A program made the translations under genes and the position numbers. From positions 1 through 6,282 of IMG/VR virus record IMGVR_UViG_3300023216_001723: 6,282 nucleotides of DNA. The stretch is one strand, 5' to 3'. Within the stretch, counting starts at the first letter, position 1. Each line of letters begins with the position of its first letter. The stretch is from a virus. The notes under the pieces are model-generated. The model had not been told where the DNA came from. It searched no databases and was given only the letters and a program-made list of their open reading frames with translations. This document shows, piece after piece, positions 1 to 6,282 of this stretch.

Positions 1-24
1 AAATAAAAGGGGCCGCAAGGCCCC
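1..24 (-). terminator. Rho-independent terminator of the minus-strand structural operon (copy 1)
   Basis: Stem GGGGCC (9-14), loop GCAA (15-18), stem GGCCCC (19-24). On the minus strand the hairpin is followed by TTTTATTT (complement of 1-8). On the plus strand the 3' flank is TATCAGTT, which is a poor terminator tail. Confidence 0.7.
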
Positions 25-26
25 TA

Positions 27-218
27 TCAGTTCGCACAATGGACATTATGTGTAAATCCGGGCCACGGCCCCGACATTGTCCGCGTCCCGGATTCGGGCG
101 CCTGCCCGCCTTTCAGATAACATAATGTTTTCACATTATGCGCACTGAAAAAACGGGACGTGTGCGGCGACGATGGCAGATGCTTTTCAGTGAGACGACT
201 CGCAGGCTCGCTGCTCAC
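27..218 (-). CDS. Doubtful 63-aa ORF downstream of zot (hypothetical)
   Basis: For: the GTG start overlaps the zot TGA (GTGA), and the ORF ends 2 nt before the terminator hairpin. Against: there is no Shine-Dalgarno sequence, the product is S/P/H/T/G-rich with no hydrophobic core, and the ORF runs through both dif-like sites and the hairpins. An open frame of this length is not rare by chance. Confidence 0.2.
   Translation of the reverse strand: MSSEPASRLTEKHLPSSPHTSRFFSAHNVKTLCYLKGGQAPESGTRTMSGPWPGFTHNVHCAN
29..57 (+). other. dif-like XerC/XerD site A (11-6-11 layout), attP candidate
   Basis: The site reads AGTTCGCACAA-TGGACA-TTATGTGTAAA(T). E. coli dif, recalled from the literature, is GGTGCGCATAA-TGTATA-TTATGTTAAAT. 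The left arm matches 8/11. The right arm matches 8/11, or all 11 dif positions if one inserted G is allowed. A second copy lies at 6167-6195. Confidence 0.5.
115..146 (-). other. dif-like XerC/XerD site B, inverted relative to site A, with a 10-bp central region
   Basis: The minus strand reads AGTGCGCATAA-TGTGAAAACA-TTATGTTATCT. The XerC-type arm matches E. coli dif 10/11 and the XerD-type arm 9/11. The spacer is 10 bp instead of 6. A second copy starts at 6253 and is cut by the window end. Confidence 0.55.
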
Positions 219-224
219 TGAAAA
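143..224. repeat. CACTGAAAA motif cluster: two direct copies, one inverted copy, and two hairpins
   Basis: CACTGAAAA lies at 143-151 and 216-224, and its reverse complement TTTTCAGTG at 184-192. Segment 143-151 can pair with 184-192, giving a 9-bp stem. CAGTGAG (188-194) can pair with CTCACTG (214-220), a stem that spans the zot stop codon. Confidence 0.6.
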
Positions 225-1396
225 GAATCAGCCACATCGCCTACGTATGAGCGATCTAACTGATCTATTCGTTCAGGTTCTTTGTAACTGTAGTACGTGA
301 CCATCTTTCCCTCGATCACGCAGAAAGGTTCACCAGTGCGGCGGGTTTTGGCACAAATGCGCGAATGGATCTTTCTGGTACCGGTTTCGCCCCATATCCA
401 ATACACGCCGTTGACCTCGCCAACGATGCGCCATTTATCAGACAGCGGGAGAAACTCTCCCTCGATTTCGAACTTGCTCTGATAGGTTTCCCGGAGTGTC
501 CGGGTTTCATCGTCACGGCGTATGACCGCCTTCTGAAGCGTGCCCGATCCGGCAGGCTGCACTGGTTGTTCCTGTACGGGTTCGGGCTTGGAACTACCGC
601 CAAGATCACGATTAAAGTAGCCATAGACGTTCCAGACGCCCCAGCCGATCAGGAGGAAGGCAGCAGGCATGACGTAACGGATAAACGGGCTTTTCCAAAT
701 GTTCGCCCGATCATCGGCCTTTTCTTCCATGCCAGCCGCAAAATCCGTCTTGTTCTTCGTGTGCGACCGGTAATATTTGTAAATCTCCGGCTTGTACCTG
801 CCAAACAGCTGACGCAACGGCTGGCCGCCCTGGCTAAGCTTGTGCGGGCCGGTATGGACATCAACACGAAACTTCTTATTGGAACCAAGCGCGGTCAGCT
901 TGCGGGCCGTGTACGTTTCTTCTACCAGATCACGAATGCACGACGCCACCTGCTGCAAATCCTGAGTGACGAGAACAATCTCGTTGGTTCTGCCGTCCGG
1001 GCCAACACAGTGACGATGCTCAGTGAAGAACTGCATCTCCTTTTCAGGGATGGCGCTGGCCTTGGTGCCGTTCTTCCAGTATCTCCACGCCTCATCAATG
1101 ACCCATATCACGCCCTGTTCATGGCGGTCGAGATCCCAAAAGTTGCTGACCAAAACCTGCCGCTTGCGGCCATTGATTTCCCGCTCTTCGTAGACGTTCC
1201 ACTCTTCGCTCAGAGGTTCGCGGACTTCAAACGAAATGAGCTTGCCCTTTGGATAATCTTCCTCAAGATAGCCCTTACGTACGGGAATGTTCGTTATCAC
1301 TGTCCTGCCCTGCTCCAGCGCCGGGAGGATCACATTTTCAACGACTCCGTAAGACTTACCGGAGCCCGGAAGGCCTGTGTAAGCAATAATGGACAT
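215..1396 (-). CDS. zot: Zot-family / pI-like phage assembly ATPase (zonula occludens toxin-like protein)
   Basis: 393 aa. The N-terminal Walker A is GLPGSGKS (residues 8-15) and the Walker B is VIWVIDEAW. One central TM segment (FIRYVMPAAFLLIGWGVWNVYGY, about 237-259) is followed by a C-terminal domain. It is the last gene of the structural operon, and its ATG overlaps the upstream stop (TAATG at 1396). Confidence 0.9.
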   Translation of the reverse strand: MSIIAYTGLPGSGKSYGVVENVILPALEQGRTVITNIPVRKGYLEEDYPKGKLISFEVREPLSEEWNVYEEREINGRKRQVLVSNFWDLDRHEQGVIWVIDEAWRYWKNGTKASAIPEKEMQFFTEHRHCVGPDGRTNEIVLVTQDLQQVASCIRDLVEETYTARKLTALGSNKKFRVDVHTGPHKLSQGGQPLRQLFGRYKPEIYKYYRSHTKNKTDFAAGMEEKADDRANIWKSPFIRYVMPAAFLLIGWGVWNVYGYFNRDLGGSSKPEPVQEQPVQPAGSGTLQKAVIRRDDETRTLRETYQSKFEIEGEFLPLSDKWRIVGEVNGVYWIWGETGTRKIHSRICAKTRRTGEPFCVIEGKMVTYYSYKEPERIDQLDRSYVGDVADSFQ

Positions 1397-1665
1397 TAGC
1401 CGATCACCGGTATTCGACGAAGGGCAAAGCGCGCGATCAGGGCACCGAAGACGACAGAGAGCCCGTAGTTAACCTCGAATAGCGTTGTGAAATACACCAG
1501 ATCACCGGGAAGGCCTTGGAATGTGGTTTGTATCTGGCCAGAGAGATCCGGCAATTTCGTCATGGAGTATTCGACGAGATCCGCAAGATTCCGAAAAATG
1601 AACCTCGGCAGCCAGAGTATGCAGGTCAGAAACCAGTCGAGAATAAACTGTCCAAATTCTTCCAT
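1396..1665 (-). CDS. Small membrane protein, pVI / Ace positional analogue (minor coat protein candidate)
   Basis: 89 aa counted from ATG 1665 (MEEFGQF...). The start lies 2 nt after the pIII-like stop (TGATAATG), with GAGG about 9 nt upstream. Hydrophobic segments occur at both ends. The gene sits between the pIII-like and Zot-like genes, as gene VI does in Ff and ace in CTXphi. The ORF-track start at 1707 would overlap the previous gene by 40 nt and is less likely. Confidence 0.75.
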   Translation of the reverse strand: MEEFGQFILDWFLTCILWLPRFIFRNLADLVEYSMTKLPDLSGQIQTTFQGLPGDLVYFTTLFEVNYGLSVVFGALIARFALRRIPVIG

Positions 1666-1667
1666 TA

Positions 1668-3023
1668 TCAGGCCCTCAGAAATACCGCGATTGCAGTAAG
1701 CGACCACACAGCAACCATGATCAGAGACAGGATTGAGCGATTTTCTTCAAGGATGATGCAGTGCATATCCATGGTGAGCGATTCCGTCCACTTGGTGGCC
1801 GGGATGGTATAAATCGGGCATGACGTAACAGATGGCAATTGAGGGATGGTCGTAAAGGCGTCAACCGTTGGATGGCCGAAAATAGCGGAATTCATGCGGT
1901 CAAGACTGGCCGTAATGGTGCCTTCTTCTGGCAGGTTCGGGCCGGTGGCATTGTCGCTGATATCCAGTTTTTCATTGATCTGACGAGTAAAGCCGACAAT
2001 CTCACCAATACCTTTTGAGTTGTTCTCCAATTCTTTCCCGATATCGTCCAAACGATCATTTGTACCCTTGCCGATCTTCTCCAGATTGCCAAGTGACTTG
2101 TTAGCTTGATCCTGACCTTGGTTGAGATCATCCAACTGCTTACGGTTTATATTGGGATCATTGTCAGGGTTGTATTCATCCGGCTGACCGTCACCGTCAG
2201 TATCAGTATTCGGATCTTCAGGGGTTGGCTGCTCTTCAGGAGTATCATCAAGCCCGGCACAGATAACGCCGTATTCATCAATAATGAAAATTTCATCGGC
2301 TGCACATTCATTCTGCTCGCCGTAATTATCCGCTATGCAACGAAGCTCGCCATTGACAAGGCCTACCTTTCCGGGCGAACCGTCAGCGCATTGATCAAAA
2401 TCACCACAAGCGGGAATAACAGGCTTACCGTAACCCTGGACTAATACGCCACGGTAATCAGGGGAATCTTTGTTGCATTCTTTCTCTGGCTCTGGAGGAG
2501 GAAGGCAAACACCGTTGAACATACCGTGTTCGCATTCTTCGGAACAAAACGAACCTTGAGGAGTCTGCGTTTCTGCAAGACCTAGATCAGAACATTCGCC
2601 AGGCTCACGATTGCGCATACATTCGAAAGGAGCACCGTAAGAGGAATCAACCAAAATGTAACCAAGCGAACATTGACCACACAAACTCTCGTCAATAGTG
2701 CCGCCGGGTTCGTGATTTAGTTGTTCACACTCTGGGGGATCGAAATACCAAACGACATAACGATATTGACCATACTTCTCGCCAGACTCGCCTTGACATC
2801 CCTGAGGATACTGAGAGTTACAAGCAGCCAATACATCACTTAGCTTCGAAGATGCCTGTTCAAGTGAGGATGCTGTATTTTTGGTATATATAATGGCGTT
2901 ATCGGGCTCATTGAGCCAAGCAGCAGAGACAAAAGGCGGGAACAAAGAGAGCAGCAGGATCAGAGATCTTTGAAGAGATACCATACTGGCATAGCCCCCA
3001 TGATGAAGAACGTCCAATCCCAC
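1668..3023 (-). CDS. pIII-like minor coat / host adsorption protein
   Basis: 451 aa. The signal peptide is MVSLQRSLILLLSLFPPFVSA|A, so ATG 2984 is an alternative start; GTG 3023 is preceded by AGGTGGGAG. Architecture: a 16-Cys N-terminal region (residues about 67-256), an acidic D/P/N/T linker (about 259-291), a polar helical region, and a C-terminal hydrophobic anchor ILSLIMVAVWSLTAIAVFLRA. It lies immediately after the major coat gene. Confidence 0.85.
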   Translation of the reverse strand: MGLDVLHHGGYASMVSLQRSLILLLSLFPPFVSAAWLNEPDNAIIYTKNTASSLEQASSKLSDVLAACNSQYPQGCQGESGEKYGQYRYVVWYFDPPECEQLNHEPGGTIDESLCGQCSLGYILVDSSYGAPFECMRNREPGECSDLGLAETQTPQGSFCSEECEHGMFNGVCLPPPEPEKECNKDSPDYRGVLVQGYGKPVIPACGDFDQCADGSPGKVGLVNGELRCIADNYGEQNECAADEIFIIDEYGVICAGLDDTPEEQPTPEDPNTDTDGDGQPDEYNPDNDPNINRKQLDDLNQGQDQANKSLGNLEKIGKGTNDRLDDIGKELENNSKGIGEIVGFTRQINEKLDISDNATGPNLPEEGTITASLDRMNSAIFGHPTVDAFTTIPQLPSVTSCPIYTIPATKWTESLTMDMHCIILEENRSILSLIMVAVWSLTAIAVFLRA

Positions 3024-3042
3024 AGCTCTCCCACCTGCTACC

Positions 3043-3291
3043 TCACTTTTTCTTGATAGTAGACAGGATCAGTGCAGCACCGGTCATTACGATCAGAACA
3101 CCAGCGATAACGCCGACGATGGCCTGAATGCCGGTGATTTCACCGGAGTAATCAACCGCGCTTGTGACTGTTGACCAGTCAGCCGCGTTAACGGCAGCGC
3201 CGTATGCCGCGAGACCAACGGCACCAGCAGCCTGTTTCATACGGGTAGTGAATTTGCGTGCTTTTGCGACTTCGAACTTACGTGCGTTCAT
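3043..3291 (-). CDS. Major coat protein precursor (pVIII-like, Pf1-type architecture)
   Basis: 82 aa from ATG 3291, with GGAGG 8 nt upstream. A basic leader ends in VNA|A. The predicted 46-aa mature peptide is ADWSTVTSAVDYSGEITGIQAIVGVIAGVLIVMTGAALILSTIKKK, with an acidic N-terminus, a hydrophobic helix and a KKK tail. The upstream 61 codons of ORF 3043-3474 lie in a different frame over the better-supported 3309-3524 CDS. Confidence 0.9.
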   Translation of the reverse strand: MNARKFEVAKARKFTTRMKQAAGAVGLAAYGAAVNAADWSTVTSAVDYSGEITGIQAIVGVIAGVLIVMTGAALILSTIKKK

Positions 3292-3308
3292 AGCTTTGCC
3301 CTCCAGGG

Positions 3309-3524
3309 CTATCTGCGTAGAATTTGCTTGAGGATTAACCGGCCGCCGAAGACCGTAGCCATCACGGCGACGTTTGCAGAGAAGCCCTGAAATATCGCTT
3401 CCATTGCCATCTCTGCCGTATATTCCACAGGTGCGGAATACACGATCTGTGTGACCGTGCCGGCGCACTCCCAAGCAGCGCCCGAGAGTGTCCAGTCACC
3501 ATCACACAAGATCAGTTTGCTCAC
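3309..3524 (-). CDS. Hypothetical small protein, candidate minor virion or membrane protein
   Basis: 71 aa. GTG start with GGAGG 7 nt upstream; the start overlaps the stop of the preceding small ORF (GTGA). The C-terminal hydrophobic stretch AIFQGFSANVAVMATVFGG is followed by a basic tail KQILRR. The stop lies 17 nt before the coat ATG. Confidence 0.65.
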   Translation of the reverse strand: MSKLILCDGDWTLSGAAWECAGTVTQIVYSAPVEYTAEMAMEAIFQGFSANVAVMATVFGGRLILKQILRR

Positions 3525-3682
3525 GGCATGACCTCCAACGGGCAGCCATGAACGTTGAGGTATTCGAGAACGGAGGATTCCAATTCATGGAGGGTGTGAG
3601 CCATGCCAACGAAATAGCCGACCGTGACAAACGCCATCACCAGACAAAAAGCCTCGAAATACCTCACGGGAGAACGTTTCAC
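3521..3682 (-). CDS. Small hydrophobic ORF absent from the ORF track (53 aa), candidate pVII/pIX-type or Psh-position protein
   Basis: My own translation gives (M)KRSPVRYFEAFCLVMAFVTVGYFVGMAHTLHELESSVLEYLNVHGCPLEVMP. GTG 3682 overlaps the ssb-like TGA (GTGA), and its own TGA overlaps the next GTG. A basic N-terminus precedes a TM-like segment. Alternative in-frame starts are GTG 3667 and ATG 3637. It fills an otherwise unexplained 154-nt gap in a tightly packed operon. Confidence 0.5.
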   Translation of the reverse strand: MKRSPVRYFEAFCLVMAFVTVGYFVGMAHTLHELESSVLEYLNVHGCPLEVMP

Positions 3683-3987
3683 TTTGTACCAACCGGCTTG
3701 CCGTCACCGGAGAACATCCACTGAACGTCAGCGGAGCCGTCACGGCGGGTAAACGTGTTCGGGAAAACATCAGCCATGACTTCCTGACCCTTGATGCGCT
3801 CATAGGCGGCCATCAATCCGGCTTCCTGCTGGCGACGGGTAATCTGGACTTCCTGAGTTTCCATTTCGCCTTCAAAGCCGCCCGTTTTGGGAGCCTGAAA
3901 GCCGACATAGAAATTGTCATACGCGCCGTTCTGACCGTTGCGTGTGACTGTCTTTACACCGAGGACTGTGCCTTTAATTTTGAACAT
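3679..3987 (-). CDS. Putative ssDNA-binding protein (gene V / RstB positional analogue)
   Basis: 102 aa from ATG 3987 (MFKIKGTVLGV...), with GGAG 9 nt upstream. It overlaps the rep stop by 14 nt. The size, the Gly/Val/Thr-rich composition suggesting beta structure, and the position right after rep fit inovirus ssDNA-binding proteins. The function is inferred from position and architecture only. The ORF-track start at 4071 lies deep inside rep and is unlikely. Confidence 0.7.
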   Translation of the reverse strand: MFKIKGTVLGVKTVTRNGQNGAYDNFYVGFQAPKTGGFEGEMETQEVQITRRQQEAGLMAAYERIKGQEVMADVFPNTFTRRDGSADVQWMFSGDGKPVGTK

Positions 3988-5122
3988 GAATATTGCTCCA
4001 GTGGTTGCGGCGCTGCTCTTGCCAATCAATAGACAATTCGCACGGCCTGACGACCGTATGCACCTGTTCATAAAGATGTGAGTAATTGAGCCGGTACGGC
4101 TCGATTTCTTCTGTTTTGGGTTCCTGAGTGACCCAAACTAATCGCCCTGGTACACCTTCACGCACCAACGCCGAGACGATCTGATCAGGGCTCATGCCCT
4201 TCTTTTGAAGCATGTAATTGACGAGAGCGCCGTACGCACGGCGGCCATGGCTGACGAGGTGCGCGTACTCGATGCGCTCCCGCTGCTTTTTCGACTGGAT
4301 GACTTCGCGGGCCTTGGAGATAAAAGACAGAACAGGGTAACCGCCTGAAAGGTATCGGCGGGGATATCTGAGAGCGTCCAAGGGAATGTCGATCTGCTTA
4401 GCGGATAGTTCAAGTTCCCACCGAACCCATGGAGAAATGGAATCCCCAAGTTGCTTGCCCTTTTCGTATACCCGAAGGTAGCGACCACTCTCACGGGAGC
4501 CAACGTACATGGTTCGCCCGTCGTTGCTTCCCATATCGTCAATAAACTGCCCTTTCGGGGGACGTCCGTTACCAGCAAAAAGCCCCGCGCTGTATGAATC
4601 TTTCGCGTAGTCAACGTCTCGCTGGCCTTGGTGGTCGTCATAAGCAATATCGATCCTTGTCAGCTTTGGGGAGTACTCAGCCAGCGGGCCAGTCAGCGCA
4701 CGGTAAACACGGCCCCAGTCAGTGACCTGTCTGCACCCTTCCCCGCTGATATACACCTGCACCCGCTCATGCCGGGTTTCGGTTTCGCCCTTGTGATTCA
4801 CCACTTTGTTGTTGCCGCCGAACGCGAGGAAACCGGCCCGGTTTTCAAGGCTGATCGAGTTTTGAAAGAAGTTGCGACCAGTGGTGAATTTTTCGGACAG
4901 GCTGAACACCCGATCACCGAAAATAGCCGTGAGGAAGGTTTGGAACGCAGCCCACAGAAAATGATTGTCGTTGGCTTGGGGCTCCTGCATACCCGATGCA
5001 ATGAGCTGCCAGTGAAACGGCGAGAGATCGACGACCGCAGCAAGATCAATGGTGAGCGAAAGCGTGTCAATCGACACTTCGCCCACATCGTGCTGACAAG
5101 AAGGATGATCTTGAACTACCAT
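3974..5122 (-). CDS. Rolling-circle replication initiation protein, Rep_trans (RstA-like) family
   Basis: 382 aa. It contains motifs I recognise from the Rep_trans / replication initiation factor family: LTRIDIAYDD, MYVGSRESGRYLRVYEKG and VRWELELS. It is the first gene of the operon. AAGGA lies about 9 nt upstream of the ATG. Confidence 0.88.
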   Translation of the reverse strand: MVVQDHPSCQHDVGEVSIDTLSLTIDLAAVVDLSPFHWQLIASGMQEPQANDNHFLWAAFQTFLTAIFGDRVFSLSEKFTTGRNFFQNSISLENRAGFLAFGGNNKVVNHKGETETRHERVQVYISGEGCRQVTDWGRVYRALTGPLAEYSPKLTRIDIAYDDHQGQRDVDYAKDSYSAGLFAGNGRPPKGQFIDDMGSNDGRTMYVGSRESGRYLRVYEKGKQLGDSISPWVRWELELSAKQIDIPLDALRYPRRYLSGGYPVLSFISKAREVIQSKKQRERIEYAHLVSHGRRAYGALVNYMLQKKGMSPDQIVSALVREGVPGRLVWVTQEPKTEEIEPYRLNYSHLYEQVHTVVRPCELSIDWQEQRRNHWSNIHVQN

Positions 5123-5165
5123 TGAGCCGTATCCTTAGCTGGGATATGTACCAAGCGATCAGGAG

Positions 5166-5209
5166 GGTTGCCGCCCTACCCGATCACCAAAGCCCTGTTG
5201 GTTGCCGCC
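5166..5209. repeat. Direct 10-mer repeat GGTTGCCGCC (x2) in the rep leader
   Basis: The copies lie at 5166-5175 and 5200-5209, 34 bp apart. In each copy TTGCCG can be the loop of a hairpin: AGGG/CCCT (4 bp) for the first and the 10-bp stem at 5192-5217 for the second. Confidence 0.6.
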
Positions 5210-5223
5210 AACGGGGCTTTTTT
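5192..5223 (+). other. Strong hairpin plus T6; terminator-like on the plus strand, weaker on the minus strand
   Basis: GCCCTGTTGG (5192-5201) pairs with CCAACGGGGC (5208-5217), giving 10 bp including one G-T/U pair, around loop TTGCCG, followed by TTTTTT (5218-5223). There is no plus-strand gene upstream. On the minus strand the stem has a C-A mismatch and the tail is TTTGGTG. It could be an attenuator or an origin element. Confidence 0.45.
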
Positions 5224-5271
5224 ATGCCCTACTGGTCTCAATCTGCAAAAATCACAAATCAAGGATGAGGC

Positions 5272-5302
5272 AATATTGCAGGAATCACATTCACAAAGTC
5301 AA
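5272..5302 (-). promoter_or_regulatory. Candidate rep operon promoter
   Basis: Read on the minus strand: -35 TTGACT (5302-5297) and an extended -10-like TGCAATATT (5280-5272). The spacer is long (19 nt to AATATT). It overlaps the second operator-like repeat. Identified by eye only. Confidence 0.3.
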
Positions 5303-5319
5303 CAATGCATTTCTAAATT
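5290..5319 (+). promoter_or_regulatory. Candidate promoter of the 74-aa regulator ORF
   Basis: -35 TTCACA (5290-5295), an 18-nt spacer, and -10 TAAATT (5314-5319), 33 nt upstream of ATG 5352. It lies back to back with the candidate rep promoter. Identified by eye only. Confidence 0.3.
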
Positions 5320-5351
5320 TATGTAAAACGCTGAAAATCACAGGTGCAAAC

Positions 5352-5576
5352 ATGACCGAGATCAGGAAGCCCGACCAAATGAGCGATGGCCACACAGTAA
5401 GAATCCGCGATCACAGATGGGAAAAAGTGAAAGACCATGCTTGGAAGCTTATGAATCAGAACAAAGAGATAGTGAAGCCAACAGACATCGTTGACGCCTG
5501 CATATGGCTTTACATCGACAAAATAACGATGGAAGACATTGAAAACGCAAAGAAAACACAGAATCCAGATGATTAA
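5352..5576 (+). CDS. Putative phage transcriptional regulator/repressor (RstR position), ribbon-helix-helix-like pattern
   Basis: 74 aa from ATG 5352 (MTEIRKPDQ...), with AGGTG 5 nt upstream. It is transcribed divergently from rep across a 229-bp control region. The sequence fits a strand-helix-helix layout: HTVRIRD, then HRWEKVKDHAWKLMNQ, then PTDIVDACIWLYIDKI, as in Arc/CopG-type proteins. The ORF-track TTG start at 5202 lies inside the hairpin and the promoter region and is rejected. Confidence 0.6.
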   Translation: MTEIRKPDQMSDGHTVRIRDHRWEKVKDHAWKLMNQNKEIVKPTDIVDACIWLYIDKITMEDIENAKKTQNPDD

Positions 5577-5590
5577 TGTGTAACCTGCCC

Positions 5591-5614
5591 GGGCCGTTCC
5601 GGCCCTGCTTTGTT
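5591..5614 (+). terminator. Candidate intrinsic terminator after the regulator ORF
   Basis: GGGCCG-TTC-CGGCCC (5591-5605) followed by TGCTTTGTT, 15 nt after the TAA stop at 5574-5576. Confidence 0.45.
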
Positions 5615-5649
5615 GCGGGAGCCCTGGCAGGCTCCTGACGACTCCCGCT

Positions 5650-5672
5650 AAGGCTTTCAGCCTTTGTTCGTT
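5650..5672 (+). terminator. Second terminator-like hairpin
   Basis: AAGGCT-TTC-AGCCTT (5650-5664) followed by TGTTCGTT. It directly abuts a third hairpin, TGTTCG-TTC-CGAACA (5665-5679). Confidence 0.35.
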
Positions 5673-5829
5673 CCGAACACCGCTCCCGTCTGACTCGGCG
5701 TTATAGGAGACTTTACCCACGTATTACTAGCGTGGATTAGGTGCATGACCGCCGTTACGTGAACTCTTCCCCGGTGATGCCTGAAACGTCGTGTTCGTTT
5801 CTGTGCACTCCCATCATACCCCCGTGCTC

Positions 5830-5878
5830 GGGGCGTCAAGGACAAGCGGGGCCGTTCCGATGGAATCCTTGACGCCCC
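5830..5878. repeat. Perfect 13-bp inverted repeat with a 23-nt loop (long hairpin in ssDNA)
   Basis: GGGGCGTCAAGGA (5830-5842) pairs with TCCTTGACGCCCC (5866-5878). There is no T-run on either strand, so it is not a terminator. The loop carries GGGCCGTTCCG (5849-5859), which also occurs at 5591-5601. Confidence 0.7.
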
Positions 5879-5944
5879 TGCGCGCGGGGGCCTGCTGAGC
5901 GCACACAGACCCGCCCACTAAAGGGCCAATCAGGAGTGCGCAAA

Positions 5945-6139
5945 ATGACTGAAGAACTGTATCTGAAAATCGACGAGGAAATGCGGATTCACCTGGAGGA
6001 AGCGCAAGCAATACGGAAGATACTTTCCGAGATGGAAGCGGGAGATCCAGACGGAAGAAGGTTCGCAGAACGGAGAAGCGAGATCGCAGAAAGACTCGGC
6101 AGGATGGTACTAGCGAAGATGAAGGATGTACCGTTCTGA
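5945..6139 (+). CDS. Hypothetical 64-aa highly charged helical protein
   Basis: ATG 5945 is preceded by AGGAG (5932-5936) with an 8-nt spacer. The product is MTEELYLKIDEEMRIHLEEAQAIRKILSEMEAGDPDGRRFAERRSEIAERLGRMVLAKMKDVPF, two predicted helices joined by GDPDG. The stop abuts the terminator hairpin. I recognise no family. Confidence 0.5.
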   Translation: MTEELYLKIDEEMRIHLEEAQAIRKILSEMEAGDPDGRRFAERRSEIAERLGRMVLAKMKDVPF

Positions 6140-6162
6140 AATAAAAGGGGCCGCAAGGCCCC
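6139..6162 (-). terminator. Rho-independent terminator of the minus-strand operon (copy 2, in full genomic context)
   Basis: Identical to 1-24. It also lies directly after the stop of the plus-strand ORF 5945-6139, so it may act weakly in both directions. Confidence 0.7.
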
Positions 6163-6282
6163 TATCAGTTCGCACAATGGACATTATGTGTAAATCCGGG
6201 CCACGGCCCCGACATTGTCCGCGTCCCGGATTCGGGCGCCTGCCCGCCTTTCAGATAACATAATGTTTTCACATTATGCGCA
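6139..6282. repeat. Terminal direct repeat, copy 2 (exact match to 1-144); wrap-around of a circular genome or start of a second tandem unit
   Basis: Same as copy 1. It begins at the last base of the TGA stop of the 5945-6139 ORF. Confidence 0.95.

Follow-up and report, generated by a model that had tools for sequence, protein, structure and literature searches.

Here, we describe the putative attachment site of a small filamentous phage (inovirus) that comes from a metagenome of marine type and lacks an integrase. The phage genome is carried by the virus record IMGVR_UViG_3300023216_001723 of IMG/VR, positions 1 to 6,282 (hereafter "the window", i.e., the whole 6,282-nt stretch of DNA that was analysed). 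Pfam and PHROG scans of all plausible open reading frames (ORFs), long antisense ORFs included, found no recombinase domain and yielded only Zot, DUF2523, G5P, Rep_trans and coat-like proteins, in agreement with an initial annotation that had described a phage without an integrase gene. The phage very probably integrates at the host dif site in a manner that depends on the host recombinases XerC and XerD (XerCD), with the crossover on the XerC side. It probably does so, to judge from features of its sequence, as a hairpin folded from a single DNA strand, similar to the attP(+) phage attachment site (attP) of CTXphi. The initial annotation had proposed an integrase-free, CTXphi-style attP consisting of two inverted dif-like sites and using host XerCD; prophage junctions, related phages, covariation, strand bias and the lack of a recombinase gene all support that proposal.

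The site pair and its prophage junctions

The recognisable genes of the phage are all on the window minus strand and follow the order typical of inoviruses. Since inoviruses package the coding strand, the packaged single strand is presumably the window minus strand. We refer to this coding, presumably packaged strand as the "plus strand" of the phage; site B, described below, is the top strand there. Two inverted dif-like sites had been predicted, and both were located, at 29–56 on the window plus strand (site A) and at 146–115 on the minus strand (site B), in one intergenic region and with a spacer of 58 nt between them. The features of the att region are as follows, with arms and centres separated by spaces:

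115–146, minus strand: site B, which corresponds to CTXphi attP1 and forms the top strand of the hairpin, AGTGCGCATAA TGTGAAAACA TTATGTTATCT
146–136, minus strand: XerC arm of site B, AGTGCGCATAA
135–126, minus strand: centre of site B, 10 nt, TGTGAAAACA
125–115, minus strand: XerD arm of site B, TTATGTTATCT
29–56, plus strand: site A, counterpart of CTXphi attP2, AGTTCGCACAA TGGACA TTATGTGTAAA; its complement is the bottom strand of the hairpin
29–39, plus strand: XerC arm of site A, AGTTCGCACAA
40–45, plus strand: centre of site A, 6 nt, TGGACA
46–56, plus strand: XerD arm of site A, TTATGTGTAAA
133–144, minus strand: 12-nt crossover block, TGCGCATAATGT, common to phage and host dif, as seen in the prophage junctions
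6166–6282, minus strand: second att copy, repeating 28–144 by way of the terminal overlap of the window; not an independent site

The arms of site B match dif at 19 of 22 positions, and the XerC arm alone matches E. coli dif at 10/11, the same value on recomputation as in the initial annotation. The arms of site A match dif at 8/11 and 8/11 (16/22). The centres are less similar to dif: TGGACA of site A has only TG in common with it, and the homology between the site B centre and the dif centre, TGTATA, is confined to a shared TGT that adjoins the XerC arm. In 500 dinucleotide shuffles of the 6138-bp genome unit, a site as good as site A arose in 23% of shuffles, a site as good as site B in none, and an inverted pair of sites within 200 nt in one. 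Thus, the site pair is significant, and site A alone is weak evidence because an equal site arises so often by shuffling. With centres of 10 nt and 6 nt, neither site would appear to be a proper duplex Xer site by the criterion applied to CTXphi (PMC4246890).

An exact-protein look-up of Zot identified an integrated copy of the phage in a 6383-bp metagenome contig, L016, from sample 3300028892, whose positions 133–6282 are 100% identical to the window minus strand. The predicted insertion at the host dif, with hybrid sites, is what this contig contains: the prophage sits at a dif-type site, rather than at a non-dif locus or within some other att core, and a dif is rebuilt at its right end. The left site, ACTGCGCATAA TGTGAAAACA TTATGTTATCT, joins a host-type XerC arm (C at arm position 2) to site B, and the right site, AGTGCGCATAA TGTATA TTATGTTAAAT, is a perfect dif. 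At the left junction, host sequence GGATACCAGAC (with CCAGAC before the block) runs into the block TGCGCATAATGT and then into phage sequence GAAAACATTATGTTATCT (starting GAAAACATT); at the right junction, phage sequence CGTTTTTTCAG (ending TTTTTTCAG) runs into the same block and then into host sequence ATATTATGTTAAATAGG (starting ATATTATGTTAAAT). From these junctions, we infer that the host dif read ACTGCGCATAA TGTATA TTATGTTAAAT; in a Marinobacter strain, the corresponding dif would read ACTGCGCATAATGTATATTATGTTAAAT. Site A is intact inside the prophage, at 221–248, 58 nt inward from the left site. The host flanks had no match in the other loci compared.

The position of the crossover can be read from these junctions. 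Because the host and phage arms differ at arm position 2 (C or G), and because the left centre is wholly that of the phage and the right centre wholly that of dif, the crossover is confined to the 12-nt block. Integration at a dif-type site and a crossover on the XerC side of site B are thus recorded directly, and the predicted XerC cleavage position, between 136 and 135 at the border of arm and centre, falls inside the shared block. An integration of the TLC type, in which XerD exchanges first, was considered and ruled out: an XerD-side exchange would give the opposite arrangement of centres, and the AC arm on the left, the AG arm on the right and the centres themselves put the crossover on the XerC side. 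A crossover in site B fits the phage plus strand, with site B on top, rather than the phage minus strand.

For comparison of att regions, relatives of the phage replication protein (Rep; 56–73% identity) were taken with their flanking DNA. The resulting nine-phage Rep clade consists of the window, L024, L027, L029, L190, L191, L192, L194 and L196. The site pair is present in 9/9 members, where it separates zot from the divergent small genes. Site A has a 6-nt centre in all nine; most have a site B centre of 11 nt, two have one of 9 or 10 nt and one has a centre of 6 nt (i.e., 9–11 nt in 8/9). The 6-nt centre, TCAACG, occurs in L194 and also in L195 (site at 1865–1892 in both), and the near-identical L192 (2028–2060) has 11 nt, TGTAATCAACG; the 5-nt deletion in L194/L195 takes away the TGT shared with dif.

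Both prophage ends are seen in L016, L024/L025, L030 and L032, and L027 shows a left end and an internal junction. L024/L025 consists of two tandem phage copies in a metagenome-assembled Marinobacter genome, on a contig of 186 kb; the left arm has AC (host) and the internal junction AG (phage), and the right end is AGTGCGCATAA TGTATA TTATGTTAAAC. The layout of L030 is the same. A run of N occupies L030 9721–9819, where a second tandem copy would be expected, between the internal site B and the right-end dif; L030 is a tandem prophage that was collapsed or masked in assembly. In L027, the left end has the AC arm and a second copy begins with the AG arm, and the right end falls outside the contig. 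A tyrosine integrase gene (L027 6483–7751) lies ~700 nt to the left of the left end of this prophage, outside the 6.2-kb phage unit, and may belong to a neighbouring element at the same site. Two more distant Rep relatives have the same layout: a prophage with both ends in the isolate genome of Agaribacterium haliotis (L032), and tandem copies in Hahella sp. CCB-MM4 (L078). Tandem copies are thus found in three relatives (L024/L025, L027 and L078).

The window itself is a head-to-tail contig of the 6138-bp inovirus genome unit, derived from a circle or a tandem repeat. Its positions 1–144 are 100% identical to 6139–6282, an assembly overlap of 144 nt, and the source of the head-to-tail junction could be either a replicative circle or a tandem prophage. 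The att region that had been placed at 28–147 is indeed there; the initial description is incomplete in that the same site, duplicated by the overlap, recurs at 6166–6282. The contig terminus is the exact base at which the phage and L016 part, which suggests that the assembly graph branched there and that the reads hold both circular or tandem junctions and host junctions.

The predicted forked hairpin and its conservation

In silico, the packaged strand folds into a forked hairpin that assembles an XerC and an XerD arm, the latter half paired. The parts of this structure are as follows:

27–148, minus strand: the whole attP(+)-type forked hairpin; position 148 pairs with 27 at the base of the stem in DNA folding
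55–94 (arms 55–68 and 81–94), minus strand: larger fork hairpin, with a counterpart in all relatives and compensatory changes
95–108, minus strand: small 5-bp fork hairpin, from minimum-energy structures; a hairpin is at the same place in relatives and in CTXphi

Folding of 20–155 on both strands, as the initial annotation had advised, gave stable structures for each: −34.7 kcal/mol for the minus strand, with z of −6.1 against dinucleotide shuffles and −7.5 against mononucleotide shuffles, and −28.6 kcal/mol for the plus strand, with z of −4.5. None of 200 shuffles matched the stability of the fold. The proposed stems are borne out in detail. Segment 28–41 matches the reverse complement of 134–147 at 12/14 positions, one of the two mismatches being a T.G wobble on the minus strand, and 43–51 pairs perfectly with 120–128 over 9 bp. 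Between these stems lies the expected asymmetric centre, in which position 42 faces 129–133 (1 nt against 5 nt); the minimum-energy fold adds one G-C pair, 42 with 132. Of the proposed succession of a duplex XerC arm, a bubble and a duplex XerD arm, the first two stand, and the XerD arm is paired at 6/11 nt only. The paired part is the inner 6 nt (TTATGT), and the duplex also takes in 3 nt from the centre. Over the outer 5 nt, TATCT stands opposite GTAAA without pairing, and the strands diverge there into a multi-branched fork.

The same scan and fold pipeline was also applied, as a positive control, to the CTXphi prophage array GQ466608.1. Every element there yielded an attP1(+)/attP2(−) pair, and dif1 was recovered at the right end. 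For the CTXphi att region, the fold has −45.6 kcal/mol (z −7.9) and comprises a duplex XerC arm, a top-strand bulge of 5 nt, another duplex and a fork that holds two hairpins. This is the shape adopted by the window, which upholds the earlier likening of the window structure to the attP(+) hairpin.

The hairpin is conserved and covaries among relatives. In an alignment of the nine att regions, RNAalifold recovers the stem. The aligned pairs are intact in 94.8% of cells, compared with 87.0% in column-preserving shuffles and 25–53% in slid registers, and nine pairs change on both sides, compared with 4.3 in shuffles. On four of five covariation measures, 0/500 shuffles reach the observed value; on the fifth (further pair types), 19/500 do. 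The 3–4 centre nucleotides beside the XerD arm covary between sites B and A (ACA/ACA, ACG/ACG and GGGA/GGGA). Since dif reads ATA there, this agreement is not due to similarity to dif. The larger fork hairpin also covaries, at columns 108–113 with 138–142 of alignment A2. The two fork hairpins (window 55–108; A2 columns 45–52 and 108–142) are at conserved positions in 9/9 phages and in CTXphi, and a conserved GAA(T/A) motif precedes the larger of them.

The fold also has a strand preference. The coding strand folds better than its complement in 10/11 elements, by 2–12 kcal/mol. Among the stem positions that depart from Watson-Crick pairing, 24 are wobbles (G.T or T.G) when read on the coding strand and two when read on the other strand; for CTXphi, the corresponding counts are 2 and 0. 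Site A is kept in all nine clade members though it is never the crossover site, and in every element the hairpin has a bottom-strand centre of 6 nt.

Single-stranded or duplex substrate

The length of the site B centre, the conservation of site A, the covariation and the strand asymmetry favour the folded single strand over a duplex as the substrate. Several points weigh against this conclusion. A hairpin, or a duplex site B, followed by XerC exchange and replication would give the same prophage product, and the junctions alone therefore cannot prove a single-stranded substrate. The covariation comes from nine related sequences, in which many wobble positions were inherited together and are not independent. 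In the window and most relatives, pairing of the XerD arm stops short of its outer 5 nt, whereas in CTXphi this arm is almost fully paired, making XerD binding to the half-duplex arm uncertain. The 6-nt centre of site B in L194/L195 could serve as a duplex site. The host flanks of L016 are short (~130 and 87 nt), and GC-skew around the insertion sites is too noisy to confirm that they lie at a replication terminus. Finally, the evidence gathered here is all computational.

The most serious competitor is double-stranded integration through site B alone, as in VGJphi: XerC would exchange one strand pair, replication would resolve the product, and site A and the hairpin would be incidental or serve another purpose. 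The end sequences of the prophages are equally expected from duplex recombination at site B, and the short centre of L194/L195 would suit it. Nevertheless, we consider this route unlikely. The site B centres of 9–11 bp are longer than those of established Xer sites, which are 6–8 bp, and neither the 12-bp attP1 of CTXphi nor its attP2 is reported to be usable as a duplex (PMC4246890). Moreover, site A is conserved in 9/9 phages, and its centre never departs from 6 nt; the pairing of A with B is maintained by compensatory changes, also where the centre owes nothing to dif; and both the wobbles and the fold energies favour the packaged strand.

Inovirus intergenic regions carry replication and packaging signals, as in the Ff phages, and the inverted repeat could mainly be such a single-stranded signal (a minus-strand origin or a packaging hairpin), with its likeness to dif secondary. 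The fork hairpins, conserved in position and covarying, are in keeping with this idea, which is very unlikely all the same: it leaves the 19/22 dif-matching arms, the crossover in site B and the rebuilt dif at the right end unexplained, and at most adds a role for the fork that is compatible with integration as a hairpin. The probability of VGJphi-style double-stranded integration through site A, which the initial annotation had offered as an alternative, is close to nil: the centre of this site has the canonical 6 bp and each arm agrees with dif at 8/11 positions, but that centre, TGGACA, shares only TG with dif, an equal site occurs in 23% of shuffles, its use would invert the prophage relative to dif, and in every prophage (L016, L024/L025, L030, L027 and L032) site A is intact inside and the crossover lies in site B, which removes the route.

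The hairpin route may have variants. In one, only TTATGT of the XerD arm would need to be paired. The XerD consensus is divided over the two fork strands, with TTATGTTA retained in the upper one and the complement of TTATGT-G-TAAAT in the lower. The fork hairpins may also have a second job, e.g., as a minus-strand origin or packaging signal. A joint reading, in which XerD does without a fully duplex arm, the fork hairpins have a second job and L194/L195 represents a switch between single-stranded and double-stranded integration, is unlikely. If the fork hairpins were doubly used, integration and complementary-strand synthesis would compete for one single-stranded structure, and the 6-nt-centre variant of L194/L195 could mark the switch.

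Integration through the folded strand could proceed as follows, all catalytic steps being modelled on CTXphi (PMC3089051, PMC4246890). After infection, or once rolling-circle replication has taken place, the phage plus strand would fold, with site B pairing with the complement of site A. The folded site would have a duplex XerC arm and a centre with a 6-nt bottom strand and a top strand bulging by 4 nt; beyond the centre would come the 9-bp duplex that includes the inner half of the XerD arm, and then the fork with its two small hairpins. XerC and XerD would bind this assembled site. XerC would cut the top strand between AGTGCGCATAA and TGT, and would cut the host dif (ACTGCGCATAA TGTATA TTATGTTAAAT) at the same place. 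The top strands would then be exchanged, and the shared TGT would stabilise the exchanged strand, forming three Watson-Crick pairs into dif and, into the hairpin, T-A and G-C pairs with one mismatch. Because there is no homology on the XerD side, the reaction would halt at a pseudo-Holliday junction, which replication would turn into a double-stranded prophage. As with CTXphi, the substrate would be single-stranded DNA, XerC the sole catalyst and replication the means of resolution. The prophage would have a non-functional hybrid of site B, then site A, on the left, and a rebuilt dif on the right. Since the hairpin cannot form in a duplex, integration should be irreversible, and virions should come from tandem copies.

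Genome, relatives and the place of the phage among Xer-using phages

The genes of the phage and the neighbouring structure downstream of attP are as follows:

215–5122, minus strand: phage gene block, which sets the packaged strand and has no recombinase among its genes
5122–3974, minus strand: Rep_trans protein, RstA-like
4071–3679, minus strand: G5P-like protein
between the G5P-like and pIII-like genes, minus strand: small coat and minor proteins
3023–1668, minus strand: pIII-like protein
1707–1396, minus strand: DUF2523 protein (pVI/Ace-like)
1396–215, minus strand: Zot
8–25, minus strand: terminator-like hairpin with a T-run, AGGGGCCTTGCGGCCCCT and then TTTATTT, directly downstream of attP on the phage strand

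In addition, there are two small divergent ORFs on the plus strand. The terminator-like hairpin adjoins the stop codon of the plus-strand ORF of 64–67 aa that ends at 6139. A 63-aa ORF at 27–218, overlapping the att region, was treated as spurious; it has no family match and is not called in L016. Two further inverted repeats were noted. One, of 21 nt at 174–234 (90% complementary, 19-nt loop), spans the zot stop just upstream of attP on the phage strand, and could be another single-strand signal (packaging or origin) or a transcription structure. The other is a perfect 13-nt repeat (GGGGCGTCAAGGA and TCCTTGACGCCCC) in non-coding DNA at 5830–5878, between two divergent small ORFs, and is a candidate operator or origin element.

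The Zot and Rep relatives carry Marinobacter names, and the host is presumably a Marinobacter or a related bacterium. It is the Rep module, rather than the morphogenesis module, with which the attP travels, since the phages with the closest Zot use other means of replication or integration: the Marinobacter prophages L018–L023, with a morphogenesis module 55–60% identical to that of the window, either have Rep_1, in tandem arrays, or encode a tyrosine integrase of their own. The modules for replication and integration are thus exchanged independently of structural genes. In viral contigs with Zot relatives (L001–L015, 55–58% identity), a different, non-dif hairpin follows zot. In L196, an Acyl_transf_3 gene (6250–6912) lies between zot and attP, the slot of ctxAB in CTXphi, and this may be a cargo position.

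A wider survey with the gammaproteobacterial dif model covered 160 Rep_trans loci at a greater distance, most of them betaproteobacterial, in which Rep is ≤43% identical; paired sites were found only in L030, L032 and L078, a result that says little about absence elsewhere, as the dif sequences of those bacteria differ. Two of the distant Rep_trans prophages, L074 and L082, in Gallionellales and Nitrosomonadales genomes from metagenomes, gave no paired sites with this model; they have a dif-like sequence, AATACGCATAA TGTATA TTATGTCAAAT, ~6–8 kb downstream of Rep on the opposite strand (L074 15549–15576 and L082 17185–17212). Several searches at the DNA level were negative. Megablast of the whole window against 5,426 complete E. 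coli genomes gave no near-identical match. The exact core of site B, GCGCATAATGTGAAAACATTATGT, was not found in genome contigs or viral contigs, nor was the gapped pattern CGCATAATG N5-11 TTATGTTA N50-80 TTTACACATAA found in viral contigs. A Rep-based search of viral contigs found no relative.

The closest known system is CTXphi of Vibrio cholerae, in which attP1 and attP2 form attP(+) (Val et al. 2005, as reviewed in PMC3089051 and PMC4246890); their centres are of 12 nt and 5–7 nt, and neither is usable as a duplex (PMC4246890, PMC3089051). Like CTXphi, the window phage is an integrase-less inovirus with an RstA-type Rep_trans protein, and its inverted dif-like pair is flanked by the last morphogenesis or cargo gene on one side and by divergent small genes on the other. 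In both, the coding strand bears the long-centre site, whose centre begins with TGTG and measures 10 nt in the window and 12 nt in CTXphi, the other strand bears the short-centre site (6 nt and 5–7 nt), the forked hairpin has a top-strand bulge, and dif homology is limited to the TGT beside the XerC arm. Both leave two presumably dead sites to the left of the prophage and a new dif to the right, and tandem arrays occur in CTXphi and in relatives of the window phage. The two phages also differ. The window Rep is <60% identical to anything in the phage collection, CTXphi records included, with the best-covering matches at ~30%, and whole-window megablast of that collection found no DNA match to any phage record. 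The spacer is 58 nt here and ~90 nt in CTXphi; the XerD arm is paired at its inner 6 nt here and over nearly its whole length in CTXphi. A G5P-like gene, not rstB, follows Rep, and there is no toxin cargo. The XerC arm of the host dif is a different one, ACTGCGCATAA, and the hosts, inferred from relatives, are marine Marinobacter-like Gammaproteobacteria.

Two enterobacterial phages, YpfPhi and CUS-1Phi, are ~8.7 kb in size. Like the window phage, they are filamentous prophages at dif outside Vibrio. YpfPhi (Yersinia pestis) and CUS-1Phi (E. coli) were proposed from sequence as CTX-type relatives, with an attP suited to single-stranded integration (PMC3089051; Table 2 of PMC4246890). Phages of the VGJphi type also use host XerCD, with XerC exchange first and replication resolving the junction (PMC4246890). 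These have one short-centre, double-stranded attP and integrate reversibly, unlike the window phage, with its two inverted sites and a 10-nt centre in the site that recombines. Neither a single duplex attP with crossover in a short centre, as in the VGJ type, nor a crossover on the XerD side, as in the TLC type, was found here, and every feature of the CTX type that can be tested from sequence was. A more distant analogy is the integron attC, where one specific folded strand is the site, extrahelical bases are part of the structure and a single exchange is resolved by replication (PMC4792948); the recombinase is different (IntI) and the sequences are unrelated to the window.

These phages are therefore members, in fact a new clade, of the already known CTX type. 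A search of a library of papers for work on Marinobacter and inovirus filamentous phages and on Xer and attP found no description of them. To our knowledge, CTXphi is the only phage for which experiments have demonstrated single-stranded hairpin integration by host XerCD; for a few enterobacterial prophages, it has been deduced from sequence. New here are the hosts, Marinobacter-like bacteria and further marine Gammaproteobacteria; a complete clade that offers natural variants of att; and the XerD arm that is only half paired. The same architecture extends across a clade of uncultured marine inoviruses, with nine genomes and distant relatives in Agaribacterium and Hahella and with clean junctions in the prophages, and the compensatory mutations and the strand-specific wobble bias are evolutionary evidence of selection on the fold itself. 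The clade also provides a natural set of attP variants for the pairing rules, in which the centre measures 6, 9, 10 or 11 nt and homology on the XerC side spans 1–3 nt; within this set, L194/L195 and L192 are a natural test case for the effect of centre length on integration. The architecture is a simple signature for finding such elements beside dif in genomes. Together, these observations suggest that the CTX strategy is a general inovirus solution and not a peculiarity of Vibrio.

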